Below the pieces are notes generated by a model. It saw only the letters and a program-made list of their open reading frames with translations, was not told the origin of the DNA and searched no databases. A stretch of 64,000 nt of DNA. It comes from Chiloscyllium plagiosum. Taxonomy: Eukaryota. The stretch lies in assembly GCF_004010195.1 (NCBI RefSeq), contig NC_057719.1:1505736-1569735 (forward strand), written 5' to 3'. Positions 3,487-43,734 of this stretch are shown one piece after another. The first letter of the stretch is position 1; each line of letters opens with the position of its first letter. Both the position numbers and the translations under genes were made by a program.

Positions 3487-4360
3487 TTATTACCTTACCC
3501 AGTAAATTATTTTGAGAAACTTTCCAAAACATCATAATAAGTTAATTATTGACTCATAGAATGATGTAGCAAGAGGAGAGCTGTTGTATCTGTATTGACT
3601 CTTGTGCACTGCTATGTGTAGATTTGTGTGATATAGGAGGCAATCTTTGGGTAAAGAAAATTCTTTGGAATTTCCACTGGATTTCTTTGTACGTTCAAGA
3701 TGGTCATCAGGCTGTGCTATTCCTCTCAAGTTTTGACTGGGATCAAAACCCTGGAGCTCCCTCCTCGCAGCACTGGGTGGCCTGACCGCAAGGACTGCAT
3801 AAGCTGTGTCTTTGGTCTTGTTATAGCAGTTAATAATGTCTTTGTATTAGCTCAACAACCCTTGGTTCAAGAGGGTAAAATGAGTAGTCACCTTTGGTTA
3901 TCCCTGACTCCTATGATTTTTGTTTTCTTATTGGAGTAGCTAGTCAGTTCCTTGTGTGGTTCTGGGCTTGTTTCCACTATTCAAGAAAAGCAGGAAGATT
4001 TTTCCAGTATCCTCGCTAATATAATTTCTCTCACCCACCAATAAGAGGGAAATACAGATTTACTAGGCACTTTGTGTAAAGTGGCTGTCACATTAGCATC
4101 CTGTATGGTTTCATAACCACTTTATCCACCTGTCCTACTCTTTTAATAAACTTCAAACTTAAGTGCTCTTGCTGAGTTTATACGTCACTTGTCGACATTG
4201 GTCACCTCTTAACAGCTACGATGTTAAAGAAAATAGTAAAAATCCATAACAGATCTGAAGCTATTCACCTATTGTAAAGGTCTAAAACAAAGGGATTATG
4301 ATGTTGGGCAGTGCTGTTTGGTTAGCTTACTAGTCTGAAGACACTAGCATCATTTGACGT

Positions 4361-4556
4361 AAAAACCAAAAGGACTGTGGATGCTGTAAATTAGTAACTA
4401 AAATAGAAATAGCGGCAAAGCTCAGCAGGTTTGGCAGCATCTGTGGAGAGAAATCAGAGTTAACAGTTTGAATCGAGTGAAGGTCACTCTGATTTCTCTC
4501 CACAGATGCTGCCAGACCTGCTGAGCTTTTCCAGAAATTTCTGTTTTTGTTTTAAA
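4361..4556. mobile_element. PLE-derived hairpin mini-element (family C)
   Basis: Arms ctcagcaggtttggcagcatctgtggagagaaatcagagt / actctgatttctctccacagatgctgccagacctgctgag. TSD catcatttga(c/t)gt at 4348-4360 and 4557-4569. Confidence 0.85.
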
Positions 4557-5221
4557 CATCATTTGATGTGTTGTTTGGTGCAAGCTAACAATTAACACCA
4601 CTCTGTTACCTTCCACCCTTACATAATTAAGTTTAATGGTTTAGTTAAGTAACTAAAATTCTAAAATTAATTACCATGAAAATATTAAACTTATCTCGAG
4701 TTAGTTGAACAGTGATAAATTTTAAACCTATTAATATTAAAATAACAATTGTAAAGCCTGTATTTTGCTTGGGTGGTTAGCCATTTAGTTGTCACTGAAA
4801 ACCTGCAGAAGTTCCAGCATTAAGGAGATTGCCCAAGGCACTTGAGATAAGCAAACGATTGATACCTTTGAATGCCCAGATGATTCATGAGAATGCTACT
4901 CAGTTCCATTTTCCCTGGCATCCATCACGAAACTAAAAAAGGCAAGCTCTGAGCCACCCATCAATAGAATAGAATAACAATTTATTGTCATTTGTATTTA
5001 TGAAAATATAGTGAGATGTATAAATCACCACAATTCAGCACAATTGTAATTACAAAAAGAAATAATTGAGACAAAATTAGGACAAAGTTTATCTTTTATT
5101 CCCTGCATGGTTTCTGCGTTTCTGAAGTGGCTACAGGACTCCGTCGCAGAAGCTGCTCCTGAGGCCACCAAAGCAAGGGTTTCCAGACAAGACCCACACT
5201 ATCACTGCTAACTTCTTGCGA

Positions 5222-5985
5222 GAAGAGGTCGAGTAATTTGGGCTTGTACCAATGGAGTTTAGGAGAATGAGAGGGCCACCTTATTGAACCATAAAAGATT
5301 CTTAGGAGACTTGACGGTACATGCACAGAGTTTGTTCTCCATTGTGAGAAAGTCTAAGACCAGAAGGCATAATCTCAGAGTAAGAAGTTGCTTGTTTAAG
5401 ACTTGAGAAGTATTGTTGTTTAAGAATAAATGCAGTGATGGGGCATCCAGAACTAGGTGTCACAGTCTAAAGACTTGGGGTAAACTATTTAAGACCAAGG
5501 GATCAAATGATGTGGGGGGATAAATAGGAACAGGCTTTTGAGTTGGATGATCAGTTATAATCGTAAGGAGTGGCAGAGCAGACTGGAAGGAAGGAATGAC
5601 CTATTCATCCTCATAGAATTGCTACAGTATGGAAACAGGCCATTTTGTCCAACAAGTCCACACCGTCCCTCCGAAGAGTAACCCATCCAGACTCATTCCC
5701 CTAACCTATCACTCTACATTTCCCATGACTAATGCATCTAATTTACACATCCCTGAATGCTATGGGCAATTTAACATGCCCAATCCACCCTAACCTACAT
5801 ATCTTTGGGAGGAAACCCCACGGAGCACCTGGAGAAAGCCATGCAGACAAGGGATAGAATGTGCAAACTCCACACAGACTGTCGCCAGAGGCTCGAATCG
5901 AACCCAGTCCCTGGTGCTGTGAGGCAGCAGTGCTAAACACTGAGCCACCATGTCGCCCTATTCTTGCTCCTATTTCCTGTATATC
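5222..5985 (+). mobile_element. Decayed CR1 3' fragment(s), interrupted by a SINE
   Basis: ggagtttaggagaatgagagggccaccttattgaa...ggatgatcag...ctattcttgctcctatttc. Confidence 0.65.
5611..5959 (-). mobile_element. HE1-type SINE
   Basis: Full length with A/B boxes and V-domain on the minus strand. Confidence 0.9.
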
Positions 5986-6054
5986 TAGACTTTTTTTGCC
6001 CTCTGACTTGTGGTCTTAATCCCAATACATGCCTTTATAAAACATTTGGCCCCT

Positions 6055-6660
6055 GAATCCTGCTCTACCAGTCATATGATTGTGGCTGATTATTGAACTC
6101 AATACCCTAATCTTGGAACCCCCAATTCCCTTGCTTCCTTTAGCCAGAAAAGCTATGCTTACTTCCTCATTGAAAACACAATGCTTTGGCCTCAACCACT
6201 TTGTAGTTTGAATTCCACAGGCTTGCCACTCCAAAGGTAAAGAAATTTCTCCTCACTTCAGTTCAAAAAGGTTTACTTCTTTTCCTTCAGCCTGATTCTG
6301 GACTCCCCACCAATAGGAACATCCTTCCTGCATCTAATCTAGTCATATGATAATTTTATCGGCTTCTGAGGTCCACCACGCATTCTTCTGAGCTCTTATG
6401 AATACATCCCTAACTGATTAAACTCCTCAGTTAAACTCCTGCCATCCCAGGAATCAATTAGGTAAATATCTGCTGCATTCCCTCTTTGGAGAGAGCATCT
6501 TTCATTGGATAAGTAGAGTAAAACTGAGCACAATATTCCAAGCATGGCCTCACTAAAGCCTCATCAAAGTATAATTGCAGTGAGACATTCTCGTTCTTAT
6601 ACTCGATTCCTCTTGCTATGAAGGTCAACGTACAGTTTGCCTTCTTTCCCGCTGCTGCAC
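6055..6660 (-). mobile_element. CR1 LINE 3' fragment
   Basis: Minus ORF KKANCTLTFIARGIEYK...LVRPCLEYCAQF, the CR1 ORF2 C-terminal motif. Confidence 0.85.
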
Positions 6661-6904
6661 CCATGTGCTCCCTGGAGCTGTGACACATCGGTGCTGAAAC
6701 ATATTGAGCGTTGAGGAATCTCTTTCAGAGTTGTACCCTAACACTGCAGGTCTGGGATTAACACCAACTCTCTTCTAAGATAATCTAGTTCACTATATAC
6801 TGCCCTGCACAGGGATATGTCTATACATCCATCTTCATCCAAAGACTCCTCAGAATTGCTCTAAACTTAAAAGTAAATCTAGCAAAAAAACCTAAATTAT
6901 GGGT

Positions 6905-7102
6905 TAAAAACTGAAAGAACTGCGGATGCTGTAAATAAGAAACAAAAACAGAACCTGCTGGAAAAGCTCTGCGGGCCTGGCAGCATCTGTGGAGAGAAAT
7001 CAGAGTTCTGAGGAAGGGTCATTCGAACTGAAACATTAACTCTGACTTTTCTCCACAGATGCTGCCAGACCTGAGTTTTTCCAGCAATTTCTGTTCATGT
7101 TA
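6905..7102. mobile_element. PLE-derived hairpin mini-element (family C)
   Basis: Inverted arms around CTGAGGA (7008-7014). Perfect TSD ctaaattatgggt at 6892-6904 and 7103-7115. Confidence 0.88.
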
Positions 7103-7479
7103 CTAAATTATGGGTGTTTCTCTTTAAGCTCAAAATCAAACAGGTGCCAGAAATCTCTAACAAACCTTGAGGACCTATTATTTACCTTGCTGGGTCACAA
7201 ATCAATCTAAGGTAAACAAAAATCCATCTAGGGTGCGCAGATTCAGGTGCTAGGCCTCAAAATTTGTTTAAATAAATCACCATGGCTACAGAAATACATG
7301 CAATTTAATTATTACATTGCGACACACACAAACCCACTGATTACTAACTTAAAAACCAAAAGCCAAAACTTAGAATTAATGTATAGAAATCCCACAGCTT
7401 ACATCACAACATAAATATAGATTTTGCAATTTGGGTATAGGAATGACCTGTGAACTGCTTAAGTAGAGAGCAGCATATG

Positions 7480-7785
7480 GTAAAGTGTCTGTTAATAATA
7501 ACAATGAGACAATAGGAGATGTAATAAAAAAAGTCAAAGACAGACGCACCCATCACTGCATGGTAGCATTACTTGTACACTGGCCTGATGCCTACAATGG
7601 CTTAACAAGCTCAAAGCAGCAATACTCAAGGTCATTTGGTAGATTCATGTATGAAACCTGTGGCAAAACTTGGCCATCAAGGATTGCCCTTCACATCCAT
7701 CAGTGAAGGTGTCTGTTATAAAGATACCCCGTATGGATCTGATGGATTGATTGTTGCAATCCTTCGATGACAGAAGAAAGACCTG
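7480..7785 (+). mobile_element. RTE-clade LINE 3' end (decayed)
   Basis: TCGKTWPSRIALHIHQ resembles the RTE C-terminal CxxCG...RIGLxSH motif. Confidence 0.55.
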
Positions 7786-8507
7786 AAAGGAACGGCTGTT
7801 GGCAAAGCTGTTTAATTGCTCCCAGCCCTCCAGTGATTGTGAATGAAAGACCTTCAACTAATTGCAGCCAGTAATCCTAATTTGTTTCTGTTGTCATTCA
7901 GTCCTTAATTGTAGTGTGTGAAGAGTAGCCAATGTGAAACCATTTTTGCATTACAGGGATAGTGGCTTCTGGCTAATCTTCGTGCTATGATCAAAGAATG
8001 GATCTCAATCAGATCACTGGAAAGGAGTTGAACAGGAGCTGTTCAAAGATAAAAGCACCTTGCAGTGCTTTATTATTGTAATGGGTTCTGTTTGAAGTGC
8101 AGAACGATTCCACAATGCACTGGGCTAAACTGTTTACATTACTATGTCAAAGCAGATGGTGACGCCCTTGTATTTTAGGCAAAATCTGCTTGTACAGCTG
8201 ATTAGAGCATTGAGGGTGAAGAATGACTTAATGTGCCTGTAACTAGCTGCTTAGCTCAGAGAGTGGTTGCAATGTCGAACATTCTACAACAAAGAGTGAC
8301 AAATATGATTAGTATTTAGGGAGAGGTACATGAGGTGGTGGAGTGGTATAGAAGGTCTAATTGGTATAAAGTGGGAGGAGTGCCTGTGTGGACTTCTGTG
8401 CTGAATGGTCTAATTCTGGGATGTCATAATTGTATGTAAACATAGGGAATTTTAAAACTCTGCCTGAATCTGAGATGGCTGTTGGCTGTCCTGGGTTAGT
8501 CATGGTG

Positions 8508-8637
8508 AGGAGAAAGTGAGGTCTGCAGATGCTGGAGATCAGAGATGGAAATGTGTTGCTGGAAAAGCGCAGCAGGTCAGGCAGCATCTAGGGAACAGGA
8601 GAATCGACGTTTCGGGCATTAGCCCTCCTTCAGGAGA
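8508..8637 (-). mobile_element. PLE terminus mini-insertion (family A)
   Basis: Same outer end (gagaaagtgagg) as 23587 and 42141; the inner end is at the hammerhead core. Confidence 0.85.
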
Positions 8638-10912
8638 ATTTGCTAAGGTGTTGGCTGTTTTCATTTGTCAGCTGGTGTTCTATCCTGCGTTGGAAAGTCT
8701 TACTGCTAATTGTACATCATTGGCTGGGTGGGGGGTAGAAACACTTCTGGAGTTGTGAAAGGAGCCATATAAATACAAGTCCTTTTTTCTTAAACACAGT
8801 GTTAAAAAAGCTCAGATCATCAGGATTGTCTCCCTGTTTTTGAATGACTAAGACTAGTGATGACATGTCTGTGAGCCCATTATGGTCTAAAACTGAGACC
8901 AAGGGGACCCACATTCTTGATGCTGAATACCAGGAGCATAATGAGCATTGCCCTAAAAAATGCAGAGTTTTTAAATATAGTTTTTGCCGTTTGAAGTACT
9001 AAAGAATTCTTGAAGCACACTAATGCACTCCATATTTTGATTTGAAAGTGTATGTTGTACAGATTTAATCATAATGACACCAATTTTCATGGGAACACAA
9101 GCTGTCTAGTGTTTTCCCAGAGTATGCCTTACTAAGAATTGCTTCCCCTGGGGCAGATTGTATGGAGCATAGCAGTTTTTGCAGAGTCCTTCCCACAGAG
9201 GGTTGCACCAGCTGGGCTAAATTTAACACAAGGGTCAGTCCTCTGGAAACTAAGGTTAACACTTCCGCACTTGTAGATGGTGGTAAAACATAGCCAGCAG
9301 GTTTACATACAGTGGAGGCTCTCTTATTGGAAGAATGCTAAACAGTGAAATATCACTTTTATCCATTCCTAAACATTTTGAGGAAAATAATTCAGAAAAC
9401 TTTCCAGTACAGGCTTGCGATAGAAGCATTGTCTATTTTATTCGACTTCTGAAGAAAATGATGACAGTGAATAAATATTAAACTGAGTAGATTTTCCACT
9501 TTGAATGCAGTTGGGTTAGGTTACTGTTTGTATTTCTACTAAAGTTCATTTGAATAATCACAAAGTTTAAACTTTCCACAAACCTGTACAGTTGAGCAAT
9601 GTAATAGAAGGAATTGTAATAAGGGAACTATAAGTCTTTATTTTCTCTTTCCATTTAAAAAGCATCCCTTGATGTATTTCAGTGGGAACCTGGTGAATTT
9701 CACGAATATGGCTGAAAATAGTTCTTTCAGCAGAATTGACCTATGTGTTCAGTCCTCCACTGTAATCCATTTGCATACAACATTCTCCAAATCTTTTATA
9801 CTATTCTGGTGGATTCTGTCTGGATTGTGTTGATGTCCCCTGTTGTCAATGTGGCAGTAATATATTCCAGATCACCTTGATTCTCTCTGCCTTCAGCAGG
9901 CTGTTGTTACTTTGAATAAACAGTTTCAAAAGTTCCATTTCATGACCAATTTTCATAGAATCATGCTCCACAGAGGGAGTCTATTCAGCCCACTGAGCCT
10001 TTGCCAGCTCTTTTAAAAGAGCTATTCAGTGCGTCTCCATCTCCTTGCTCTTTCCTTGGATGTTTTAAGTAGAGGTCTGACTTGCTTTTGCAAATTATAA
10101 ATACTTCTGCCCACCCTTTCATGCAAAGCATGATAATTCTGACGTATTTTCAAAGAGTTGTAGTGATGTTGTAAGAGTTTCCACGTTTATTAAAAATTCG
10201 CCAAGAGCTTTGCTCTGAAATACCAGTAAGGAAAACGGGAACCAAACTTAGTTTTTGGTTTACATTCCAGTCAGGCCAGTCAAAAACTGAGTAGTCCAGT
10301 CTTATAGTTGTTAAACGAACCCAGCTCAAATTTTAATCAGTCCTCCCCAAAAAAGCAACCGTTCTTGATGTGAGCTTAATTGATTTGAGCTTTCATCTAT
10401 CAGTAACTGTCTCTGAGAATTCTGTCTGCTTGCTTGTTAATCTGATAAAAATCTCAAGTAAATCCCATTGTCCAGGTGCAAGTCTGTTAAAATTGGAATT
10501 TTACTGTGTTTAATCAAAAGATTGTTCTTTTCAGAGACTGGGAGCTTTTGGTATGCTGTTCCCTTGTGTGTTTGAATCCAGTAACTAACAATGATGCTTT
10601 GTGCTTTACAGTTAGTAAATTGTATTTTCCTCATGAATGTGCTTTTCTACCTGCTTTTCTCATCAATTTTCTGCCCTGTACTGCAGGGGCAGATTGTTGC
10701 AGCACCTAATTATCTTGTTTGACCTGCATAAATAGTTCTCAAGGTTTGCTCAGTGGAGTCTTAATGTTGACCGTGTTGTTCAGAGCCAGGCCTGAAATCA
10801 TTCCTATCTTTTCAGTTTTCTCACTCCTTTCCATTATTAGCAGCGGCTGGTCAGGATTGGAAACTTTCCTAGAGCAATCCTCGACCAGGAGATGAGAGTG
10901 ATGTTCTTAACC

Positions 10913-11225
10913 AGAGGCGGGCAATGGCCTAGTGGTGTTATCACTGGTATTAGTCCAGAAACCCAGATAGTGTCTGGGGACCCAGGTTCAAACCCAGGTT
11001 GAATTCAAATGATGAAATTTGAATTCAAACGAAATCTGTGGTGACCATGAAACTGTTGCCAGTTATTGCTAAAACCCATCTGATTCGCTAATGTCCTTTA
11101 GTGAAGGTAACCTGCCATCCTTACCTACATATGACTCCAGACCCACAGCAATGCGATTGCTTCTTAATTGCCAATTAATACTGGCTTGGCCAGTGATGTG
11201 CAGATCCCATGAATGAACAAGAAAG
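10913..11225 (+). mobile_element. tRNA-derived SINE (second family)
   Basis: A box tggcctagtgg, B box ggttcaaaccc, tail gccagtgatgtgcagatcccatgaatgaa. Related copies at 16710, 24230 and 37610. Confidence 0.75.
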
Positions 11226-12095
11226 AATAACCTCAATTTGATCCAATTTTTGGTTTTTGAATTGCAGCTTGAACCAAGACCTGACAGTCACTAATACAGT
11301 GATTTAGCATCTATTGGTGTTGGGGCACATGTTGAATCACCCGTGCAGCATAGCAACTAAATAAACTGTGAATTACAGCAAATCTAGGTTAGATCCACTC
11401 AGTCAAATTCCTATTCATGGAATTATGTCACAATCTGCATTAAACTGCACGTACTGCACACACCATTGTATTGGTGTCATCAGTTGGGATGTTCCCTGTG
11501 GTTGTATAGTCTGTCTTCTGTTGAGGCTGGCCTTTATACCCATAGTCACGTGGAGGAAATGCCAGAAGGTAGCTGGCATCTGGGGTGAGTTAGGCCATTG
11601 TTCTGAATGAGAAGACGCAGTGTGAAAAAATGGGAGAGAGATGACCTGAGCTGGAGCACATACACAACTAATTCAACTGCTCTCAAGTAACTTGAATGAA
11701 TAGAACAGCTGATTTTAAATGGCATTTGTTTTGATGTCTTACAGCACCCACGTCACGGCTACTTCGTGTGTGGGGTACTAATGGTATTGTGTGTGCAGGA
11801 TATTTGTGTTTCACTTGGTTCTGACTGGATCTAATCTCAATTCCTCTTCTTTTTGAACAAAAGTTTATCTAGTTGTTTCCTGTTTATTGTACCTAAATAG
11901 TACAACACGCATTCAATTTGTCTATCCCATATCCCTGAAATATTGTCCTCGTTCATCATCATTTTGATTACAAGGAGATGGATGCCTTGATGCAATTATG
12001 CAGGGACTTGGTGAGACCACACCTGGGGTATTGTGTGCAGTTTTGATCTCCTTATCTGAGCAAAGATGTTCTTGCTATAGAGAGAGTGCAGCAAA

Positions 12096-12184
12096 CTGAT
12101 GAAGGGCTTTTGCCCGAAACGTCGATTTCGAAGCTCCTCGGATGCTGCCTGAATTGCTGTGCTCTTCCAGCACCACTGATCCAA
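12096..12184 (+). mobile_element. PLE terminus mini-insertion (family B) starting exactly at the hammerhead core
   Basis: CTGATGA-a-GGGC-tttt-GCCC-GAAA-CGTC. TSD agt(g/a)cagcaaa at 12085-12095 and 12185-12195. Confidence 0.9.
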
Positions 12185-12646: not shown

Positions 12647-12805
12647 AGCTGAAAATGTGTTGCTGGAAAAGCACAGCAGGTCAGGCAGCATCCAAGGAAC
12701 ATGAGAATCGACATTTCGGGCGTAAGCCCTTCTTCTGTTCCTTGGATTCTCCTGTTCCTTGGATGCTGCCTGACCTGCTGCGCTTTTCCAGCAACACATT
12801 TTCAG
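12647..12805. mobile_element. PLE-derived hairpin mini-element (family A)
   Basis: Inverted arms; perfect 16 bp TSD cttccctccatatcag at 12631-12646 and 12806-12821. Confidence 0.9.
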
Positions 12806-20105: not shown

Positions 20106-20880
20106 TGATGAAGTAACAAAGAGGGTTGATGAGGGCAGAGCAGTAGATGTGATCTGTATGGACTTCAGTAAGGCATTTGACAAGGTTCCCCATGGGAGAC
20201 TGATTAGCAAGGTTAGATCTCATGGAATACAGGGAGAACTAGCCATTTGGATACAGAACTGGCTCAAAGGTAGAAGACAGAGGGTGGTGGTGGAGGGTTA
20301 TTCAGATAAATGCGAGGTGCTGCATTTTGGGAAAGTAAATCTTAGCAGGACTTATACACTTAATGGTAAGGTCCTAGTGAGTGTTGCTGAACAAAGAGAC
20401 CTTGGAGTGCAGGTTCATAGACAAAGTCTTTTCCCTGGGGTCGGAGTGTCCAGAACTCGAGGGCGTAGGTTTAGGGCGAGAGGGGAAAGATGAAGAGCTT
20501 TTGCCCGAAACGTCGATTTTACTGCTCCCCGGATACTGCCTGAACTGCTGTGCTCCTCCAGCACCACTAATCCAGAATCTGGTTTCCAGAATCTGCAGTC
20601 ATTGTTTTTATCTAAAGATATAAAAGAGACCTACGGGGCAACTTTTTCACGCAGAGGGTGGTACGTGTATGGAATGAGCTGCCAGAGGATGTGGTGGAGG
20701 CTGGTACAATTACAACATTTAAGAGGCATTTGAATGGGTATATGAATTGGAAGGGTTTGGAGGGATACGGGCCGGGTGTTGGCAGGTGGGACTAGACTGG
20801 GTTGGGATATCTGGTCGGCATGGACGGGTTGGACCGAAGGGTCTGTTTCCATGCTGTACATCTCTATGACTACGACTCTT
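20106..20880 (+). mobile_element. CR1 LINE with internal deletions
   Basis: DEGRAVDVICMDFSKAFDKVPHGRL; full 3' UTR. Confidence 0.9.
20492..20613 (+). mobile_element. PLE terminus mini-insertion (family B)
   Basis: gaagagcttttgcccgaaacgtcg...gcagtcattgttttta; TSD aaagat. Confidence 0.85.
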
Positions 20881-22947: not shown

Positions 22948-24190
22948 AGTCATAGTGATGTACAGCATGGAAACAGACCCTTCGGTCCAACTCGTCAATG
23001 CCGACCAGATATTCCCAACCCAATCTAGTCCCACCTGCCAGCACCTGGTCCTTATCCCTCCAGACACTTCCTATTCATATACCCATCCAGATGGCTTTTA
23101 AATATTGCAATTGTATCAGCCTCCATCACTTCCTCTGGCAGCTCATTCCATACACACACCACCCTCTGAGTGAAAATGTTGCCCCTTGGGTGTCTCTTAT
23201 ATCTTTCCCCTCTCACCCTAAACCTATGCCCTCTAGTTCTGGACTTCCCCACCCCAGAGAAAAGACTGTCTATTTATCTTATCCATGCCCCTCATGATTT
23301 TATAAACCTCTGTAAGGTCACCCCTCAGCCTCCGATGCTCCAGGGAAAATAGCCCCAGCCTATTCAACCTCTCCCTATAGCTCAAATCCTGGCAACATCC
23401 TTGTAAATCTTTTCTGAACCCTTTCAAGTTTCACAACATCTTTCTGATAGGAAGGAGACCAGAATTGCACACAGTACTCCAACAGTGGCCTAACCAATGT
23501 CCTGTACAACTGCAACATGACCTCCCAACCCCTGTACTCAATACTCTGACCAATAAAGGAAAGTATACCAAATGCCTCCTTCACTAGGAGAAAGTGAGGA
23601 CTGCAGATGCTGGAGATCAGAGCTGAAAGTGTTGCTGGAAAAGCGCAGCAGGTCAGGCAGCATCCATGGAGCAGGAAAATCGATGTTTTGGGCATGAGCC
23701 CTTTTTCAGGAAGGAGCCCTTCCTGAAGAAGGGCTCATGCCCGAAACGTCGATTCTTCTGCTCCTTGGATGCTGCCTGACCTGCTGCGCTTTTCCAGCAA
23801 TACATTTTCAGCCTCCTTCACTATCCTATTTACCCGCGACTCCACTTTCAAGAAGCTATGAAACTGCACTTCAATGTTTCTTTGTTCAGTAACACTCTAG
23901 GACCTTACCATTAAGTGTATAAATCATACTAAGATTTGATTTCCCAAAATGCAGCACCTCACATTTATCTAAATTAAACTCCATCTGCCACTTCTCAGCC
24001 CATTGGCCCATCTGATCAAGATCCCGTTTTAATCTGAAGTAACCTTCTTCATTGTACACTACAACTCCAATTTTGGTGTCATCTGCAAACTTACTAACTA
24101 TGCCCTTTATGCTCACATCCAAATCATTTACATAATTGACGAAAAGCAGTGGACCCAGCACCGATCCTTGTCACACTCCACTGGTCACAG
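22948..24190 (-). mobile_element. CR1 (HER1-like) LINE 3' 1.0 kb
   Basis: LGPLLFVNYVNDLD...SKFADDTKIG...WQMEFNLDKC (RT core FADD). Confidence 0.93.
23587..23810. mobile_element. PLE-derived hairpin mini-element (family A) with an intact hammerhead core in the right arm
   Basis: CTGAAGA(23723-23729)-a-GGGC-tcat-GCCC-GAAA-CGTC. Perfect TSD gcctccttcacta at 23574-23586 and 23811-23823. Confidence 0.92.
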
Positions 24191-31279: not shown

Positions 31280-32580
31280 TGCCTTCTGCAACTGGATCCT
31301 CAGCTTTCTGACCCACAGACCACAATCAGTGAAGATAGGTCACTGCACCTGCTCCACAATAACGCTGGACACTGGAGCCCCCAAGGATGCTTCATCAACC
31401 CCCTACTATACTCCCTGTACACCCAAAACTGTGTTGCCAAATTCCAAATGAACGTCATCTACAGGTTGGCTGACAACATCACTGTAGTGGGATGGATATC
31501 TAACAATGATAGTCAAAATACAGAAGACGACAGAGGGCTTGTTGATGTGCTGCAGTGAGAACAACCTCTCTCACAACGTCAGCAAAACTAAAGAACTCAT
31601 CATTGACTTTGGAAAGAAAGGAGCAGAACACTCTCCCATCTATATCAACAGAGCTGAGGTTGAGAGGGTGGAGAGCATCAAGGTCCTCAGGGTGATGATG
31701 ACCGACAGCCGGCCTGGGACTTCCCACGTAGATGCTATGGTCAAAAAGATGCAACAACGCTGCTTCTTCCTCAGGTAGTTCAGGAAATTTGGCATATCCA
31801 TAAGAAACCTTAGCAACTTCTACAGATGTACCATTGAGAGCATACTGCCAGGATGCATAATAGCCTGGTGTCTGGATTAGTGGTGCTGGAAGAGCACAGC
31901 AGTTCAGGCGGCATCCAAGGAGCTTCAAAATCGACATTTTGGGCAAAAGCCCTTCATCAGGAATGATGAAGGGCTTTTGCCCGAAATGTCGATTTCGAAG
32001 CTCCTTGGATGCCGCCTGAACTGCTGTGCTCTTCCAGCACCACTAATCCAGAATCTGGTTTCCAGCATCTGATGTCATTGTTTTTACCTAATAGCCTGGT
32101 GTGGCAACTGCTCTGCCCAGGACCATACGAAACTACAGAAGGTGGTGGACAAGGTCCAGACCATCACGGAAGCCAACCTTCTATCCAAGGGCACCATTTA
32201 CATGATTCGTGGCAGCAAAAAAGCTGCTAACATCATCAATGATCCTTCGCACCCTGGTAATGATTTCATTACATTTACATTTTACATTACATTACAGTGT
32301 GGAAACCTCTCCAATCAAGCAGAAGATACAGAAACCTGAACACGCAGCAGCAGGTTCAGGAACAGCTTCTTCCCGGCCGATGAATGGACTCCCCAGCCAC
32401 AAGTAATACTGGTCTTGTTAACGCTGATCTTGCCAAGCACACGCCCTATACAATGTAACATGTGTGCCTCCAGGTCTTTTAGATCTGTACACATTTGCTA
32501 ACTATAATCTGCTTGTACTGCTTATAAACAAAGTTTTTCACTGTGCTTCAGTCCATGTGACAATAAATAAATCAATCAAA
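31280..32580 (+). mobile_element. Rex1/Babar-type LINE, RT region to 3' end (decayed)
   Basis: ctgcaactggatcctcagctttctgacc (CNWILSFLT); NLSHNVSKTKELIIDFGK...VERVESIK; tail gacaataaataaatcaatcaa. Confidence 0.85.
31872..32088. mobile_element. PLE-derived hairpin mini-element (family B)
   Basis: Two divergent hammerhead-bearing arms. Perfect TSD taatagcctggtgt at 31858-31871 and 32089-32102. Confidence 0.92.
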
Positions 32581-32877
32581 GGGCATTTTGTGCATGGGTA
32601 GAAAGGGTTTAGAGGGACATGGGCCAAGTGTGGGCATATGGGACTATGTCAGATTGGGACATCTGGCTGGTATGGATGAGTTGGACCAAAGAGTCTGTTT
32701 CTGTGCTGTGTGATTCCATAACACTAAAAGTGCATTATGGTAATTGTAAATTGTTGATTTTGGGAGCTTGCTGTGTCCAAATTAGAGTCATAGAGCTGAG
32801 CTTCGGAGGGTCAGTGTGACTTGTGGAGCCAAATGGCTCGTTTCCAAGCTGTAGGGATTCAATGATTTTATTCTCTT

Positions 32878-33110
32878 TGTCTCTCTGTCTCTGTCTCTCT
32901 CTCTCTCTCTCTNNNNNNNNNNNNNNNNNNNNNNNNNNNNNNNNNNNNNNNNNNNNNNNNNNNNNNNNNNNNNNNNNNNNNNNNNNNNNNNNNNNNNNNN
33001 NNNNNNNNNNNNNNNNNNNNNNNNNNNNNNNNNTCCCTTTCCCTCTCCCACCTCATTTTCTGCCTTCCTCTTCCTCCCCCTCTTGTCTCATTGTCTCTCT
33101 CTCTCTCTCC
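32878..33110. repeat. (CT)n microsatellite spanning an assembly gap (N 32913-33033)
   Basis: Seen directly in the sequence. Confidence 0.9.
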
Positions 33111-33477: not shown

Positions 33478-33612
33478 ATCATGATTTGGAGATGCCGGTG
33501 TTGGACTGGGCTGTACAAAGTCAAAAATCACACAACACCAGGTTATAGTTCAACATGTTTAATTGGAAGCACACTAGCTTTCGGAGCGATGCTCCTTCAT
33601 CAGGTGATAGTG
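33478..33612 (-). mobile_element. PLE terminus (family D) with intact hammerhead motif
   Basis: Minus strand: cac-CTGATGA-a-GGAGC-atc-GCTCC-GAAA-GCTA-gtg. Confidence 0.85.
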
Positions 33613-33620
33613 GAGGGCTG

Positions 33621-33880
33621 GAATTATGTTGGAACAGGAATACTGGCATGTACTTACTGAGTTGAGAAGTGTGCTGCTGGAAAAGCACAGCCGGTCAGGC
33701 AGCATCCGAGGAATAGGAGAATCGATGTTTCAAGCATAGACTCTTCATCCTAATGAAGGGCTCATGCTCGAAACGTTGACTGTCCTGCTCGTCAGATACT
33801 GCCTGACCGGCTGTGCTTTTCCAGCACCACACTTCTCAACTCAGTAAGTACATGCCAGTATTCCTGTTCCAACATAATTC
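33621..33880. repeat. 260 bp hairpin: PLE hairpin (33661-33840) plus 40 bp inverted non-PLE arms
   Basis: 33621-33660 is the exact reverse complement of 33841-33880. Confidence 0.9.
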
Positions 33881-34477
33881 TTAGCCCTATCAACATACCC
33901 AACGGAGTCTTAGGTGAGTGACAACATGTGTTCAAACTCCTGCTTAGTCTGTGAACTTCCAGACTTCAAATCTTCTAGGAGCCAGCTTGGGCATTTGGGA
34001 CCTGACAGTCCTGCCTGTGTCTGTACCATTGACTCCTCCCTCTTCCAAACCGGACTATGCTACTGTCTGGTGGTGTTTGATGGAGTAGCTGATTTATCAT
34101 GTCCCCCCACAGATGTAACTCTGCAGTTGATACTTAACCATTTTGCCTTGCCTGTAATTCTCTCCTGAAATCACTCCAAATCTCTTTGTTCCTTTTCAGA
34201 TCTTTGACCAAATACTTTGACTGTTAATCTGATATTAGATTAGATTAGATTCCCTACAGTGTGGAAACTGACCTTCAGTCCAACAAGTCCACACCGACCC
34301 TCCGAATATCTCCTGAGGTGGCTCAACGTGAATTTTTTTCTTAAAAGAAAACCAATAGAAATGCAGATGCTGTAGCTCAGAAACAAAAACAGAAGTTGTT
34401 GGAAAAGCTCAGCAGGTCTGGCAGCATCTGTGAAGAAAAATCAGCATTAACGTTTTGGATCCAGTGACCCTTCCTCA

Positions 34478-34762
34478 GAATCATAGAATCCCTGCAGTGT
34501 GGAAACAGGCAATTCGGCTCTACAACTTCACACCGAACCTCCGAAAAGTAACCCACTCTCCATCTCTATTACTCTATGTTTACCTCTAACTAATCCATCT
34601 GACCTACACATCTTTGAATTGTGGGAGGAAACTGGAGTACCCGGAGGAAACCCACACAGACACTGGGAGAATGTGCATACTCCACACAGACAGTCACCTG
34701 AGGCTGTAATCAAACCTGGATCCTTGACACTGTGAGGCAGCAGTGCCAACCACTGAGCCACC
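34478..34762 (-). mobile_element. HE1-type SINE
   Basis: Collinear with the other copies. Confidence 0.9.
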
Positions 34763-35941: not shown

Positions 35942-36885
35942 TAGAGTCATAGGGATGTACAGCATGGAAACAGACCCTTCGGTCCAACCTGTCCATGCTG
36001 ACCAGATATCAAACCAATCTAGTCCGACCTGTCAGCACCCGGCCCATATCCCTCCAAACCATTCCTATTCATATACCCATCCAAATGCCTCTTAAATGTT
36101 GCAATTGTACCACCCTCCACCACATCCTCTGGCAGCTTATTCCATACACGTACCACACTCTGCATGAAAAGGTTGCCCCGTAGGTCTCTTTTATATCTTT
36201 CCCCTCTCACCCTAAACCTCTGCCCTCTACCTCTGCACTCCCCGACCCCAGGGAAAAGACTTTGTCTATTTATCCTATCCATGCCCCTCATAATTTTGTA
36301 AACCTCTATAAGGTCACCNNNNNNNNNNNNNNNNNNNNNNNNNNNNNNNNNNNNNNNNNNNNNNNNNNNNNNNNNNNNNNNNNNNNNNNNNNNNNNNNNN
36401 NNNNNNNNNNNNNNNNNNNNNNNNNNNNNNNNNNNNNNNNNNNNNNNNNNNNNNNNNNNNNNNNNNNNNNNNNNNNNNNNNNNNNNNNNNNNNNNNNNNN
36501 NNNNNNNNNNNNNNNNNNNNNNNNNNNNNNNNNNNNNNNNNNNNNNNNNNNNNNNNNNNNNNNNNNNNNNNNNNNNNNNNNNNNNNNNNNNNNNNNNNNN
36601 NNNNNNNNNNNNNNNNNNNNNNNNNNNNNNNNNNNNNNNNNNNNNNNNNNNNNNNNNNNNNNNNNNNNNNNNNNNNNNNNNNNNNNNNNNNNNNNNNNNN
36701 NNNNNNNNNNNNNNNNNNNNNNNNNNNNNNNNNNNNNNNNNNNNCTGAAAAACAACCCTCCACCACCACCCTCTGTCTTCTACCTTTGAGCCAGTTCTGT
36801 ATCTAAATGGTTAGTTCTCCCTGTATTCCATGAGATCTAACCTTGCTAATCAGTCTCCCATGGGGAACCTTGTTGAACGCCTTAC
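35942..36885 (-). mobile_element. CR1 LINE spanning an assembly gap (N 36319-36744)
   Basis: MRGMDRINRQSLFPGVGE...VWNKLPE; the RT region continues after the gap. Confidence 0.85.
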
Positions 36886-37400
36886 TCTTCTCTCTCTTTG
36901 GGCTTTATCTCCACTTATTGGTTACTCCTTACCCCCTCCACTAACCTCATCTTCTGCATGTAAACTGACATTTTTCTAGCTGCCATCAGTTCTGAGGAAG
37001 GGTCACCGGACCAAAAATGTTAACACTGATTTTTCTTCACAGATGCTGCCAAACCTGCTGAGGTTTTCCAGCAATTTCTGCTTTTGTTCCTGATTAAATT
37101 TTTCTTGGTGCTCTTGTAAAATTTCTTGAGATATTTCACTACATTAAATGCAATTTAGAAAGAAAGTAATTTCCGTATTCAGTCCTCAATGACTGTGTAA
37201 GTATATATTTCACAAGACCCCTCCAACCCCAATAATACTCTCTTCTGTCCTCTTGTCGCTCACACCCTCGCTCCCCACCTTCTCTGCAGCTGTAACACTG
37301 TATTCTGTACTCTCTTCTACTACTCTGATACACTCTGTATGGTACCATACCAAGTGTATGTATCTTGGTACATGTGACAACAGTAAATCAACAACTAACA

Positions 37401-37560
37401 CAGGACAACCTTGATTATCTAAACGACATGGGCGGGGAGTATTTTGTTCAGATAATTGAATGTTTAGATAATCAGTTTACCCAAGCATCGAAACCTTGAA
37501 ATCTTTTTCAGATAATCTGAAATTCAGATAATTGATGTTCGGATGATCAAGGTCGTACTG
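37401..37560. mobile_element. Tigger/pogo-like MITE
   Basis: 24 bp imperfect TIRs caggacaaccttgattatctaaac / gttcggatgatcaaggtcgtactg, TA on the right flank, internal agataat repeats. Confidence 0.7.
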
Positions 37561-37609
37561 TACTGTGTTATTTTATCTTTGGTAGCAGTAAATAGCACTA
37601 TTCTTATTA

Positions 37610-37900
37610 TTTTATCCGTTCATGGGACGTGGGTGTCGCTGGCTAGGCCAGTATTTGTTGCCCATTCCTAATTAGTCAGAGGGCATTGTAAGAGTCAACC
37701 ACATTGCTGAGAGCCTGGAGTCACATGTAGGCCAGACCAGGTAAGGAGATTAGATTTTCTTTTTTAAAGGACATCAGTTAACCAGATGGGTTTTTAGAAT
37801 AATCCACACTGGTTACATGGTTCCTCTTAAGTTAGTTTTTATTCCAGGTTTTTTTTAAATTCAGTTTCCCATTGCCTGCTGTAGTGGATTTGAATCCAGG
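37610..37900 (-). mobile_element. SINE of the 10913 family
   Basis: ttcatgggacgtgggtgtcgctggctaggcc...ggagtcacatgtaggccagacc...ggatttgaatcc. Confidence 0.75.
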
Positions 37901-37912
37901 CCTGCTGAACAT

Positions 37913-38037
37913 CGAGGAAGGGTCATTGAACCAAAAACACTAACTCTGATTTTTCTCAGCCAGACCTGCTGAGCTTTTCCAGCAAGTTTTGTTACTGTTT
38001 CTGATTTACAGCATCTGCAGTGCTTTTGTTTTATTTT
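37913..38037 (+). mobile_element. PLE terminus mini-insertion (family C)
   Basis: Starts gaggaagggtca. TSD ctgc(t/a)gaacat at 37902-37912 and 38038-38048. Confidence 0.85.
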
Positions 38038-38059
38038 CTGCAGAACATTACCTAGGTTT

Positions 38060-38520
38060 AGAGTCAGAGAGATGTGCAGTACAGAAACTGACCCTTTGGC
38101 CCAACTCATCCATGCCGACCAGATATCCAAAATTAATTTAGTCCCATTTGTCAGCAGTTGCCCTTATCCCTCCAAACACCTCCTACTTCATGTACCCATC
38201 CAGATGCCTTTTAAATGTTGTAATTGTACCAGCCTCCTCCACTTTTTCTGGCAGCTCATTCCATATACACACTGCCCACTGCATGAAAAGATTGCCCCTC
38301 AGGTCCCTTTTAAATCTTTCCCCTCAAACCTTAAACCTATGCCCTCTTGTTTCAGATTCCCCCACCTTGGCTAGTCACCCTATTCATGCTGCTCGTTATT
38401 TTGTAAAGATCTATAAGGTCATTCCTCAACCTCTGATGGTCCAGGAAGAAAAGGTCCAATCTATTCAGCCTATCCCTGTAGCTCAAACCTTCCAATCCTT
38501 CAGCATCCTTGTAAATCTCC
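38060..38520 (-). mobile_element. CR1 3' end
   Basis: Reverse complement of the CR1 3' ORF2 and UTR. Confidence 0.85.
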
Positions 38521-38854
38521 TGGATGAATAGTTTAGCAATAATACTAGGAGGCCATCTGACTCAGGTTGGAACCTAGACACAATGACAAGTACATAAACA
38601 ATTAACTACAAGGTGCACGATTCTCGATATACCTGCCCCTTCTATCCCACTATGAGGGGACGAACAAATGTTCACTGTTCATATTCTCTGTTCTTTCGAG
38701 GCATCTGGATATGCAGTGTTGCTAGTGGGTTGTTTTCATATATCTGACAGCATATGAAGACTGGAAGTGCTTTGAGAAAAGGAGATTCTGATAAACGAAT
38801 GTTCTCTCTACCACCACAAAGGTCAAAATCAGTAGGAATTACCATCACCTGCAT

Positions 38855-39070
38855 ATGTAATCCTGACTTGGAACTATGTTGCTATTCCCTCAGTATTACT
38901 GGGAAATCCTGCAACTCCCTCCTTAACAGCACCGTGAAACAATATTCCCCGTGTGGGTTGTAACGCTTCAAGAAGGCAGCTCACACACTACTACCTCCAG
39001 GGCAATTATGGATAGGCAATAAATGCTCACCCAGTCAGTGATGTCCACATCATGTGAATGAATTTAAAAA
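38855..39070 (+). mobile_element. LINE 3' end sharing its tail with the 10913 SINE family
   Basis: ttcaagaaggcagctcac...ggcaataaatgct...cagtgatgtccacatcatgtgaatgaa. Confidence 0.6.
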
Positions 39071-39324
39071 ATTACATTATTTTCTTTCTCATGCCTCTGT
39101 CTCCATACCCCATCTTTTTAAAAATCCAGATCTTTGTTTTTTTGGCTGGTAATGCATAATAGAAGTGTTTGATTGTGAACACTGAGTAGACTGTTCTACC
39201 TACTGACACACACGTGTGGAATAGTTACATTTAGCCTATTGGTTAGGGAGGGTTAAGTTTAACCAGAGCTAGTGTTGTAATCACTGTTCAATGAAAATAC
39301 ACATGTAAATGTTGAATGGCTGTT

Positions 39325-40500
39325 CTCGCCCTCTTCTTGGCAGCCTTTCAGGACTGAGGATGACTTTTCAACCAATCTGGAGTTGTCAGTCCTAAACTGA
39401 CTAAACAGTTCAACTTCTGCTGAAGCAGATGGGTGAGAGGTTTGGGTTTTCAGATGCTTATAGCTTCCTTCCCACTGTTTGCACTTGTCCTCCATCTGGG
39501 CAAGCACTCAAAATTATTGGCACCTTTGTGAACATTTCTCCATTCTACACAGCCTTGAGTTAGAGAGGGGAATATTTCATTTCTTCTAAAGCTTTGAAGA
39601 CCACCTTGAAGTGTTTTCTCTGCCCTCCTGGTAACTGCTTCCTATGACGAAGCTTCTTTGAGAAGTTTTTCTTTAGGCATGTGGAGGGTGTGGCTCACCT
39701 GACTCAGCTGATTGGCCGTTACCAGTGCGTCAGTACTAGGAATGAGAGGGCACTGATTTTGCTGTGTCTATCCTGCCATTGGATTTGCAGGATTTTGTGG
39801 AAGTGTCGCTGCTGATATTTCCCAGTGGATTTGTGTTGTCTGCTGTATGTTGACTGTGTGTTTCACACAAGAGGGCAGGTAACACTGTGGCCCTGTGCAC
39901 CATAAGCATTGTGCTAGGTTTCAGCTCTTTGTCATCAAGCGCTTTATATCCTCGATGGTCAAGGGCAACATTGGCCACTGGAAGATAATATTGAATTTTT
40001 CCATGGATATCGGTCCTCTGAGAGGGTACTCCCTAAATATGGGAATAGATCAGTGTTGTCCAATGGCTTGCTGTGGATCCTGATAGTTGGGCGAAAACAG
40101 TGTTGTGTAGTGAGAGCAGTCTGGAGAGAACTTCTGTCTTCTGAATGTTTAGCCTAAAGCCCATTCCTTCATTGGCTGCATGATGGGGTGGAACTCTGTT
40201 TCTGAGCATATGCACATACAGGAATTGTCTGCATCCTGCAGCTGAATAAGAGGTTGGATAGGTGTCTGTTCTGGATTGGATGTAATGTTGATTGAGCCAT
40301 TTCCTGCTTATCCAGCAGAGAAGCTTTACTCCAGTAGAAGGCTGTATGGTGATAGGGTTACAGTGACGACGATGGAAAAGAGTATTGGTACAGTGACACA
40401 GTCTTTCATCACCCCACGCTGCACAGTAATGTGTCTGTGCTGGGTCCGTTGGTGAGAATCACAGCTGGCAGACTGTCATTTGGGGGAGGAATTTTTATGG
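39325..40500 (-). mobile_element. RTE-clade LINE (decayed)
   Basis: Minus LKPSTMLMVHRATVLPALL and GFRLNIQKTEVL. Confidence 0.7.
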
Positions 40501-40564
40501 CCAATCAGATTTGAAGACAGTGCTCCGTAATCCTTCTCAGTTGTAAGATCATGTTAAGAGGTAG

Positions 40565-41115
40565 CTGTTGGTATCCAGAGGTCTGAAGTATAAGGATGCA
40601 GAGGTTAGACTCCACTTGGGACACCGAGAGTAAATCTGGGCACCACACTGTAAGAAGGCTTGGAAGGAGTACAGCATTGATTTGCAAGAATGATACCTGG
40701 ACTTCAGTGGTTAAGATATGAGGAGAGATTATACAAATTAGTCCTGTTTTCTCGAGAATTTTGAAGGTTAAGGGATGAGCTGATTGAAGTCTTCAAGATA
40801 TTAACAGGAAAGGGCACTGCAGATAAAGGGAAACTATTTCCACTGGTTGAAGCTTCTAAAACAAAGGGCATAGTCTGAGAATGAGGGCCAGACTGTTCAC
40901 GCGAGATGTTATGAAGCACTACCACACAAACTGCAGCTGATGCTAGATTAATTGTTTGTTTGAAATCTGAGAAGGATAAAGTTTTGTTAACGAAAGGTAT
41001 TCAGAGATATGGGCTTCGGGCAGATATATGGTGTTAGGTCACAGATCAGCCAAGATTTCATTGAATGGTGGAATGGACTCAAGGGGCTGAATAGCCTACT
41101 CCTGTTCCTTTGTTC
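40565..41115 (+). mobile_element. CR1 3' fragment
   Basis: tatgaggagagattatacaaattagtcctgttttctcgaga...gggctgaatagcctactcctgttcct. Confidence 0.8.
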
Positions 41116-41229
41116 CATCACTTCTTTTGAACTTGACTTGCAGTGAAGCTCATGTCCATTGAGCCTCTTGCTGGATGGAATATGCAGTGTAGCTCTGGTA
41201 GATACTGTCCAGCCACTGGGAGAAAACAG

Positions 41230-41377
41230 CAATTCAGGCAGCATCCGAGGACAGGCAAAATCGACGTTTGCCCGAAACGTCGATTTTGTCTGTCCTCGGA
41301 TGCTGCCTGAATTGCTGTGCTCTTCCAGCACCACTAATCCAGAATCTGGTTTCCAGCATCTGCAGTCATTGTTTTTA
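41230..41377. mobile_element. PLE-derived hairpin mini-element (family B)
   Basis: TSD ccactg(g/a)gagaaaacag at 41213-41229 and 41378-41394. Confidence 0.9.
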
Positions 41378-42048
41378 CCACTGAGAGAAAACAGTTGAGG
41401 ATTTTTACAATGACCACCTCTGTGGCTGAGGATGGGAGATCCTTCTGTAGATACTGCAATTGGTCTTAACTTTATCCTTGAATGAGGTCTCAATTGTAGT
41501 ATCACAGAGTTCTCCTGGCCTGCTGTCCTTCTTCCAGACGAGAGAGAATGGTCATATGCAAGTCTAGGTTGCTTCTCCATTGCAGTTTTGTATGACTTTG
41601 GGGATTCCATCTGCGCCAATAGCCTTGTTGGGTGGCTAGGATAGTAGATGTGGCTGTGATGCATTCATGGTATAAAATTCACCAAAGCTGTCTCAATTGA
41701 TTCACTTAGGTGATGTAACTCAGAGCGCCTGTGAAATCATTACCCAGCAGGGTAGCATTCTAAACTGAAATTCAAATGTCAAAAATCTTGGCAACAAATA
41801 CCCTGTGCTATGGATTTTAAAAAAAATTCTACATTTCGATCATGTGTCTTGAAGGAGCGAGGCTGTCATGGCAGCAGATTCTAAACTGCATCATCTGCCT
41901 GCAGCTAATTCTCACTGTCAAGGTGGTGATTCAGCACACACACACATACACACACACACACAAACCTAGATTTGTTCAATATATAATTTCAGTTGCATGA
42001 CACTGTAATCTTTTGCTATAAATTCTGTGTCTTATGGTCCTGCTCCAC

Positions 42049-42088
42049 AGCTACCTGATGAAGGAGCAGTGCTCCGAAAGCTAGTGCT
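42049..42088 (+). ncRNA. Minimal type I hammerhead ribozyme motif
   Basis: agctac-CTGATGA(42055-42061)-a-GGAGC-agt-GCTCC-GAAA-GCTA-gtgct: core intact, 5 bp stem II, AGCT palindromic stem III, CUA cleavage triplet, short bulged stem I. Confidence 0.7.
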
Positions 42089-42140
42089 TCCAAATAAACC
42101 CGTAGAACTATAACCTGGTGTCGTGTGATTTTTAACTTTG

Positions 42141-42267
42141 AGAAAGTGAGGACTGCAGATGCTGGAGATCAGAGCTGAATGAGGGCTTATGCCCGAAACG
42201 TTGATTCTCCTGTTCCTTGGATGCTGCCTGACCTGCTGCGCTTTTCCAGCAACACATTTTTCAGCTC
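42141..42267. mobile_element. PLE-derived inverted mini-element (family A)
   Basis: Perfect TSD tgatttttaactttg at 42126-42140 and 42268-42282. Confidence 0.9.
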
Positions 42268-43734
42268 TGATTTTTAACTTTGTCCACCCCAGTCCAATTC
42301 CGGCTCTTCCATATCATCTGTAGGTCCTGCCTGACCTGTTGAGCATTTGTAGCATTTTCCCTTCATAAATTTGTTTCTTGACAATATTAGTTGAGGGATA
42401 AATGTTAGCTGCGGTAAATGCGAGACCCTGTCATCTCTTTCAGCCACTTGAGAGTGCTTCAGGCCTTTGATTGACATCACATTGGAACAATGGCATATCC
42501 AACAGTGCAGCAATCCCTCAACATGGTAATGCAGTATTACCCAAGATTTTGACCTCTAGTTTTTGCTGTGAAAGTCAGATCTTCTAAAGCGGAGGTGAGA
42601 GAGAGCATTGAACCAGGACTGACATGCCAGCAATATTTTCATTGTATGGTGACCAGGCATTACAAATCCTTGCTACTTTTGAGTTCCTTCTCTTGTATGC
42701 CTTCCTAATTCAGGGTGAGACTCTTTTAAAGGCCAAACCTATGAAAACCATTTTCCACTTATCTTCTCACTGGGAGCCGAGATGGTGATGTAACTGAGCT
42801 GATCTGTCTGTTGCTTCTTACACCAGAAGCCCGTACAAAGGGAATGTTGTATTGTCATACTGCAGCAGATATTGCCAGCAGAGCTCCAGACTGGGTTTGG
42901 TGGATTTTAAAGATCACATTGCACTGTTTGAGGAAAAGTAGGACCATTTTGACAGCTTTTGTTCAGTGGTGCTTTTTTATCTATCACCAGAAGTAAATTG
43001 CTTGGTGTCTCTCACTACTCATACTGAGAGCTTGTTGCATATGAAGTAAGAACTACAGTACGTATATGAACATCAAATTTACAAATGTTCATTGTTATGA
43101 ATGCAGTCCCATTACACGTGTGTAATTTTTAAGATCCAACAGATGCACTTTTTCTATTATGAAACAGCTGCTTTATATTGTCCTGTACTGTGTTCCGACT
43201 TGCGAATCAACTCCAGAATGGAACCCATTCACAGCCTAAGGGCTGCCTGTAGTAGTCATTATACCTAAAAGTAGCATTTCAATTGACATTAATATCACAT
43301 GCTATAAAAGTGCTAGTTCTTTCTGATTGCTCTGGACAGTGACGTTTACCCACAGAGTTGACCTTATTCCTTCAAAAAGCAATGTTGTTAGAGTAATAGC
43401 TTTACATGCAATGTTTCCATGCTGATTGGTTTTCGCTATCCGCTCAGGCACAGCTCTTGTGATCACTCACTGTTAGAGGCTGGAGCTTTGTTCACATGCA
43501 AATTTTAATATGAAAGAAGGAATAAGACATGCAATTCAAGTGATCAATCGTCGTATCCTCACTTGTTTCAAATGCAGAATATTATGTCATTCTCCTCTTA
43601 TCTGTTTGTACAGTAAAGTGATTGAGTTAGGAAGTTGTAGCTAACATAATCCTCAATCTTCCATTTGGAAGTTCATTTTGATGCCTTTAGTTGTACTGTG
43701 TCAATTCTAGGGGTTTGTTCTTCCTTATCCCTTA

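Follow-up and report, generated by a model that had tools for sequence, protein, structure and literature searches.

The DNA analyzed here, a 64,000-nucleotide (nt) stretch of the genome of the shark Chiloscyllium plagiosum (the window), carries many copies of the terminus of a Penelope-like element (PLE), several of which are arranged as short inverted pairs. The arm sequences of these pairs match 21 loci within the window, which sort into three related families (A, B and C), and 11 solo arms are present. A preliminary description of the window had listed seven insertions of inverted arms with target-site duplications (TSDs) of 13, 13, 16, 13, 14, 17 and 15 bp, and we find that coordinates and TSD lengths hold for all seven. 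An eighth hairpin, 33614-33888, had been overlooked. The elements are as follows, with the identity between the two TSD copies in parentheses:

4361-4556, family C hairpin: tailed antisense arm on the left, tail-less sense arm on the right; arm identity 59/65; TSD 4348-4360 and 4557-4569 (12/13)
6905-7102, family C hairpin: arms not nested; arm identity 55/64; TSD 13 bp (13/13)
12647-12805, family A hairpin within a CR1-type repeat: both arms tail-less; 9-nt locally templated junction insert; TSD 16 bp (16/16)
23587-23810, family A hairpin: tail on the left arm; 7-nt junction insert; TSD 13 bp (13/13)
31872-32088, near-perfect hairpin of family B: tailed right arm; arms not nested; TSD 14 bp (14/14)
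41230-41377, family B hairpin: tailed right arm and short left arm; TSD 17 bp (16/17)
42141-42267, family A inverted tail plus one sense arm, no hairpin: 5-nt junction microhomology; TSD 15 bp (15/15)
33614-33888, older hairpin of a related subfamily: inner arms alike at 76/88 positions; a direct TSD was looked for and not found

Five of the seven TSDs are perfect and two have a single mismatch; by chance, a flanking direct repeat matching at 12 or more of 13 positions was met in 102 of 200,000 random 125-230 nt stretches of the window. Removal of an insertion together with one TSD copy restores the host repeat, and single-copy, uninterrupted paralogous target sites exist within the window for 12647 (four sites), 23587 (three) and 42141 (one). 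The host of 42141 is the terminus of another hammerhead-bearing family (D), with an empty paralogue at 33481-33602. Termini of family D, which are unrelated in sequence to families A-C, occur at 42041-42316, 33481-33605 and 43737-43824, and the 42141 insertion point lies ~35 nt from the end of its family D copy, near the expected tail boundary. Reading through the sequence by eye bears out the earlier statement that the insertions lack poly(A). The assignment of inverted arms to all seven requires amendment: six form long hairpins when folded with DNA parameters (-53 to -117 kcal/mol), but 42141-42267 is an inverted tail plus one arm that folds at only -16.6 kcal/mol and forms no hairpin. Its left part is the inverted tail alone, which overlaps the sense arm by ~8 nt.

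That the arms are PLE termini, as had been proposed, is confirmed by a remnant of a reverse transcriptase (RT)/GIY-YIG element that closes in the same terminus:

63261-64000, minus strand, PLE remnant: thumb and linker with CX4CxxC, endonuclease core deleted, 3' region, and a tail-less terminus of the family B type

An 89-amino-acid piece of this remnant is 87% identical to P0001, a shark protein whose domain matches to RVT_1 (E 0.0077) and GIY-YIG (E 0.00025) are both below the Pfam cut-off; the cut-off is passed by P0002 (GIY-YIG) and P0011 (RVT_1). Named protein matches of the remnant come from Chiloscyllium, Rhincodon and Stegostoma. The CX4CxxC linker is present in the remnant and in P0001 and P0002, the latter two also carrying the inner cysteines, and the accessible part of one report gives this linker as the defining mark of Neptune and Nematis PLEs (PMC8557442). 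By that definition the linker places the element, on its predicted protein sequence, among endonuclease-bearing PLEs of Neptune or Nematis type. The RT/GIY-YIG link is direct for the family B type only, families A and C being joined to it by sequence likeness. The remnant sits in a CR1-type long interspersed nuclear element, and the two together read as one chance 315-amino-acid frame (62585-63529).

The inner part of each arm matches what we take to be the minimal hammerhead core consensus and is a predicted ribozyme. Core plus stem II is matched exactly five times in the window, compared with 0.2 matches in 30 simulated controls, and 13 matches are obtained when one mismatch per core is allowed. 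An Rfam search of the elements gave no hammerhead match at E<=5; its 16 matches all lie below the gathering score and are mostly microRNA hairpins. Judged from sequence, then, the arms are the hammerhead-bearing terminus, or pseudo-long terminal repeat (pLTR), of a PLE. The sub-threshold microRNA-precursor matches among the hairpins fall at 4426-4520, 12668-12789 and 31900-32023, and the hairpins could yield double-stranded RNA if transcribed. In modeled RNA folds of families A and C (23587-23712, 34348-34480), the tail pairs back onto a conserved segment of the body, and such pairing might serve in protein binding or in selecting the start site; family B folds differently.

In size, inverted arms, TSDs and high copy number the hairpins resemble miniature inverted-repeat transposable elements (MITEs), which would be moved by a cut-and-paste DNA transposase that recognizes the inverted arms. 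We consider such an origin exceedingly improbable, in agreement with the preliminary description, which had argued against MITEs from variable TSD length. The hairpins lack terminal inverted repeats, their terminal 15 nt matching at only 3-7 of 15 positions (12647 matches if shifted by 2 nt), and their long TSDs vary from 13 to 17 bp in the seven insertions, with 11-12 bp in three solos. Furthermore, the window holds solo arms as well as pairs, and the origin of the arms is a retrotransposon, the terminus being the one that closes the RT/GIY-YIG element.

The outer ends of the insertions follow simple rules. Arm order is antisense on the left and sense on the right in all seven, and therefore the 3' ends face the target. 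A tail is found on one arm in six insertions, on neither arm in one, and on both in none. Of the 10 tail-less ends, nine fall 30-37 nt inward of the tail end; the remaining one, the left arm end of 41230, is internal at 65 nt from the tail end and has 4 nt in common with its target. The fixed outer ends reported earlier are confirmed for tail-bearing ends, and they are the known 30-40 nt PLE tail with its two RT start sites, as set out in the portions available of Frangieh et al. (2024, PMC11167929). The 10 tail-less ends share 5, 2, 2, 4, 1, 4, 4, 0, 1 and 4 nt with the target, a mean of 2.7 nt (27 nt in total) where 0.37 is expected, and this level was reached in none of 200,000 simulations.

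The inner ends are likewise restricted, as is also apparent from the single copies in the window, among them:

1-205, plus strand: family A copy retaining internal sequence upstream; its hammerhead core is at 114, and it is the ruler for the reads below
8509-8635, minus strand: solo family A terminus with tail, beginning at the hammerhead 5' edge
12094-12184, plus strand: solo family B terminus, tail-less, 11-bp TSD (10/11)
20484-20610, plus strand: solo family B terminus with tail; host is a CR1-type repeat; no TSD
37914-38032, plus strand: solo family C terminus with tail, 11-bp TSD (10/11)
47636-47733, minus strand: solo terminus, tail-less, 12-bp TSD

Uninterrupted paralogous sites are found in the window for the solos at 12094 (one) and 20484 (eight). 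The window has assembly gaps at 32913-33033 (121 N) and 36319-36744 (426 N).

An arm end lies no more than 3 nt from the first base of the hammerhead core in six of the eight two-arm elements (the inner arm ends of 4361, 6905, 12647 and 33614 were read by eye from alignments). Six of the 11 solos start at this edge of the core, or seven with 47636, which was read by eye, and four solos keep upstream sequence. In families A and C, the base 3 nt before the core falls within a presumed initiator-like motif; in B the motif is less clear. The hammerhead 5' edge is probably the start of the RNA, and likely a pLTR transcription start. Between the arms, all eight junctions in the window differ, and they consist either of 1-5 nt of microhomology or of a locally templated insert of 7-9 nt (23587 and 12647). 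Microhomology is supplied by hammerhead stem I in 6905 and by five nt of the core in 42141.

One way to obtain two inverted arms is for a single complementary DNA (cDNA) to self-prime at a hammerhead stem and copy itself, so that the second arm would be a DNA copy ended by endonuclease resolution; self-priming has been proposed for PLE inverted junctions (PMC3846280, in the sections accessible). This fold-back route would suit the arms of 31872 (identity 86/88, compared with 76-94% to other copies) and 41230 (39/40), which are nearer to each other than to other copies, as well as the nested arms of 12647 and 41230 and the 6-bp mini hairpin at the junction of 4361. We nevertheless regard it as unlikely. 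In 6905, 31872 and 42141 the tailed arm is without 5' sequence that the tail-less arm holds, and each arm contains element sequence that the other lacks. Because neither arm is a subset of the other, simple cDNA fold-back is excluded for these three. The tailed antisense arm of 6905, for example, ends at the predicted hammerhead cut site, its tail-less sense arm begins at the hammerhead 5' edge, and the two are joined via a 4-nt stem I complement; the tail-less left arm of 31872 extends 5 nt further 5' than the right arm. Tail-less ends moreover pair with the target, as a priming event would. Nesting is marginal in 4361 and the arms tie in 23587, where both reach the hammerhead 5' edge. Among the six tailed elements, the tail-less arm is the longer one on the 5' side in four (one marginal), with one tie and one case against. 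Divergence between arms is 2-14% across the seven, and in 23587, 4361 and 6905 an arm resembles other copies roughly as much as it resembles its partner.

The reading that we favor, with a probability of roughly 75%, is that each hairpin is a one-off, body-less PLE insertion in which both staggered nicks primed reverse transcription and the run-off cDNAs were joined by microhomology. The GIY-YIG endonuclease would nick the two strands 13-17 nt apart, a geometry suggested by the TSDs. Each 3'-OH would then prime reverse transcription on the element RNA, either at the tail end or at a site 30-37 nt inside, and at the inner site 1-5 nt of target pairing would set the exact position. The RNA would begin at a fixed position, the hammerhead 5' edge, with the two start sites ~95 and 130 nt away. 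Both cDNAs would extend toward the RNA 5' end, which one of them usually reaches. Because they have the same polarity and cannot anneal, the cDNAs would be joined, by a presumed joining pathway, through microhomology or small templated inserts, often at hammerhead stems, and fill-in would yield the order TSD, antisense arm, sense arm, TSD. A single priming event would leave a solo terminus, and a long copy on one side would give a textbook PLE with an inverted 5' pLTR.

This double-priming model fits what has been described for PAc, the Poseidon element of the anole, in the available portions of an in vitro study (Frangieh et al. 2024, PMC11167929): both strands are nicked and extended, and synthesis begins internally at two RT start sites, one on each side of the tail. 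The protein is a predicted dimer, the template comes from the junction of the pLTR and open reading frame (ORF), near the 5' part of the RNA, and uncleaved RNA is the main substrate (PMC11167929). PAc belongs to the Poseidon clade, whereas the shark element is of Neptune or Nematis type; the study, as covered here, describes neither joined two-arm products nor a TSD length for PAc. The preliminary description's suggestion that both nicked strands prime reverse transcription is thus probably correct, although the product has the established PLE layout, reduced to its shortest form, and is not a new kind of element. The alternative that it offered, a mobilized short RNA, survives in part and is compatible with the first: the template would act as a short RNA whose 5' end is fixed, the hairpin would arise anew with every insertion, and a propagating family is unsupported.

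The template might be one RNA, the second RT displacing the first cDNA, or the two RNAs of a dimer. The preliminary description held that, given the overlap of the arms, simple twin priming on one RNA does not explain them fully; the arms do overlap, but double priming on one RNA would be possible with displacement. We tentatively entertain, as a possibility that we rate as somewhat doubtful, a more specific version in which a dimeric PLE protein holds one RNA that serves as template two times close to its capped 5' end: priming at the inner site comes first, and priming at the tail end follows, with displacement of the first cDNA. This single step would account for the inverted pLTRs, one-sided tails and solos of all endonuclease-bearing (EN+) PLEs. 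Displacement on one RNA is hinted at by arm polarity and by the arm identities of 31872 and 41230, three other pairs being without excess. Variants shared between arms were considered as proof of one template and rejected, given that 23587, 4361 and 6905 show no excess and 33614 was homogenized later.

A further alternative is that a completed hairpin is itself transcribed and then mobilized whole by the PLE protein. The fixed outer ends speak for such an element, and non-autonomous PLE derivatives exist according to the accessible parts of two reports (PMC8557442; 10.64898/2026.07.22.740005). The recurrence of junctions, which the preliminary description had proposed as the deciding check, was evaluated with reads mapped at 85% likeness to window positions 1-300, the family A copy with its upstream sequence (four runs of 24). 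No RNA run was among those in which a DNA search detected the stretch. Two read sets (X19 and X20, 1,934 million letters each) and contigs of organisms B and C were used. Reads mapping to this ruler numbered 134,718 and 129,850, with a peak depth of ~112,000, from which we estimate at least ~130,000 copies of the terminus, on the assumption that the genome is no smaller than the contig totals of 2.2-3.0 Gb (four organism A runs). Depth climbs from 21,600 at positions 91-100 to 59,200 at 111-120, and contigs of organisms B and C contain 279 and 244 loose ends at 110 without common upstream sequence.

The best 15 of 658 joint rows are all strand-change classes with one end at 109-115; the other end lies at 111-158 in these 15, and at up to 195 in the insert table (42141 type). 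Junctions are many and clustered, and none is dominant. The best class comprises 68 reads in X19 and 69 in X20 at a depth of 59,000-74,000, or ~0.1%, and accounts for 68 of the 601 reads in the best 15 of 658 rows (X19). Both read sets contain the top classes, and 14 of the best 15 of 658 are also present in contigs of organism B or C, which favors propagation. Against it stand the low share of even the best class, the eight different junctions in the window, and the 2-3 nt of microhomology in seven of the best 15 of 658 classes, which makes hot spots without propagation. Movement of preformed hairpins as units is therefore, in our judgment, quite unlikely. A search of metagenome contigs for a 32-letter family pattern gave no matches.

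In three arms the start coincides with the predicted hammerhead cut or is 1 nt removed from it: the right arm of 12647 (12745), the left arm of 6905 (7007) and the right arm of 4361 (4486). Hammerhead-cleaved RNA as the main template was considered and rejected: two of these three arms are explained by microhomology, the cut site (141/142 on the ruler) occurs in none of the best 15 of 658 joints, and no depth step is seen there in 10-nt bins. A cleaved template is at most a minor route.

The pairs could also have been produced after insertion, from solos by template switching during replication or by gene conversion, or could be assembly artefacts. The case for this is 33614, where 40 nt of non-element DNA outside the diverged arms form a perfect inverted repeat; the element part next to that repeat is nearly identical between arms, and the inner arms differ by 14%. 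This locus may reflect a recent template switch that lengthened the palindrome, or an assembly artefact. For the seven insertions, however, the TSD encloses both arms, and therefore both arms came with the insertion. Their arms differ by 2-14%, and strand-change joints appear in the raw reads from two samples as well as in contigs from two further organisms. A later or artefactual origin for the hairpins in general is accordingly very improbable. Another locus, 55996-56297, was considered as a mixed-subfamily hairpin and excluded from the counts, since it is better read as an old hairpin with a later solo: arms of an older subfamily lie at 56005-56029 and 56247-56271, with a solo family C terminus between them.

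Several observations weigh against one-off insertion by double priming, or against parts of it. First, the in-window search for empty sites, made for 11 loci, found nothing for four of the seven insertions (4361, 6905, 31872 and 41230); nothing was found for solo 37914 or remnant 63261 either, so that six of the 11 were without a site. Second, neither arm of 4361 or 41230 reaches the hammerhead 5' edge, and the RNA start is placed from DNA end positions and a presumed initiator motif; the depth step at 110 owes partly to subfamilies whose upstream part fails to align. Third, the nested arms of 12647 and 41230 fit fold-back equally well, and 33614 shows that arms can be rewritten (homogenized) after insertion. 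Fourth, not every joint row beyond the best 15 of 658 has to be a strand change, and library artefacts may be among them; in addition, a single top class may represent 100-200 loci, which would allow small propagating lineages. Finally, as far as the accessible text goes, anole PAc acts without homology between target and start site, whereas the shark ends share 2.7 nt on average (PMC11167929).

The hairpins can be placed beside several known systems. In L1 twin priming, two target ends prime on the RNA and an inversion results inside the TSD; the two arms cover separate sequence, and poly(A) closes one of them. The 42141 insertion resembles such a product, whereas shark arms elsewhere overlap by up to ~90 nt and lack poly(A). 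The standard PLE layout, in the parts available of three reports, consists of an inverted truncated copy, a tail of 30-40 nt at a single end, and a TSD of variable length (PMC8557442, PMC3846280, PMC8969392). With EN+ PLEs as described there, the shark insertions have in common the head-to-head inverted truncated copy, the one-sided tail and a variable TSD around the unit, together with a hammerhead core in the terminus and an initiator-like motif (PMC3846280, PMC8557442). They differ in having no ORF or direct pLTR between the arms. The rotifer PLEs covered have TSDs of 8-10 bp, compared with 13-17 bp in the shark, and include solo pLTRs; shark termini number ~10^5, and the non-nested shark arms speak against the self-priming proposed there (PMC3846280). 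Non-LTR retrozymes, which the accessible portion of one report places in a cartilaginous fish, likewise are short and non-coding, with a type I hammerhead core and a PLE pLTR origin (10.64898/2026.07.22.740005). Retrozymes form head-to-tail tandems of units that each carry a hammerhead (10.64898/2026.07.22.740005), whereas all two-arm shark elements in the window are head-to-head, and the main shark 5' boundary lies ~30 nt upstream of the predicted cut site.

The hairpins are the shortest form of a known PLE insertion structure, without a body, and not a new element class. Our literature search found neither body-less two-arm PLE insertions in sharks nor a junction spectrum, although repeat databases (Repbase and Dfam), older subscription papers and supplements, which lay outside its scope, may hold one. 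What is new here is the pile-up of inner ends at the hammerhead 5' edge, the target sharing of tail-less ends, and the non-nested arms. Such hairpins are liable to be mis-called as MITEs or as microRNA precursors, the latter because Rfam returned sub-threshold microRNA matches.

In the sections available, three reports describe the origin of PLE inverted ends and of the one-sided tail as unsolved (PMC8557442, PMC3846280, PMC11167929). Minimal insertions are very numerous in shark genomes, and each allows both primer ends, both start sites and the junction to be read within 130-230 bp. Because all ends are visible in these insertions, simple counts can serve to test the competing models, namely self-priming, endonuclease resolution, and double priming on either one RNA or two. 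The one-RNA model predicts a tail-less arm that reaches the RNA start, a tailed arm that ends before it, and subfamily variants common to both arms. If true, double priming on one RNA would replace the antisense self-priming model, and its traces would be readable from tens of thousands of shark loci.

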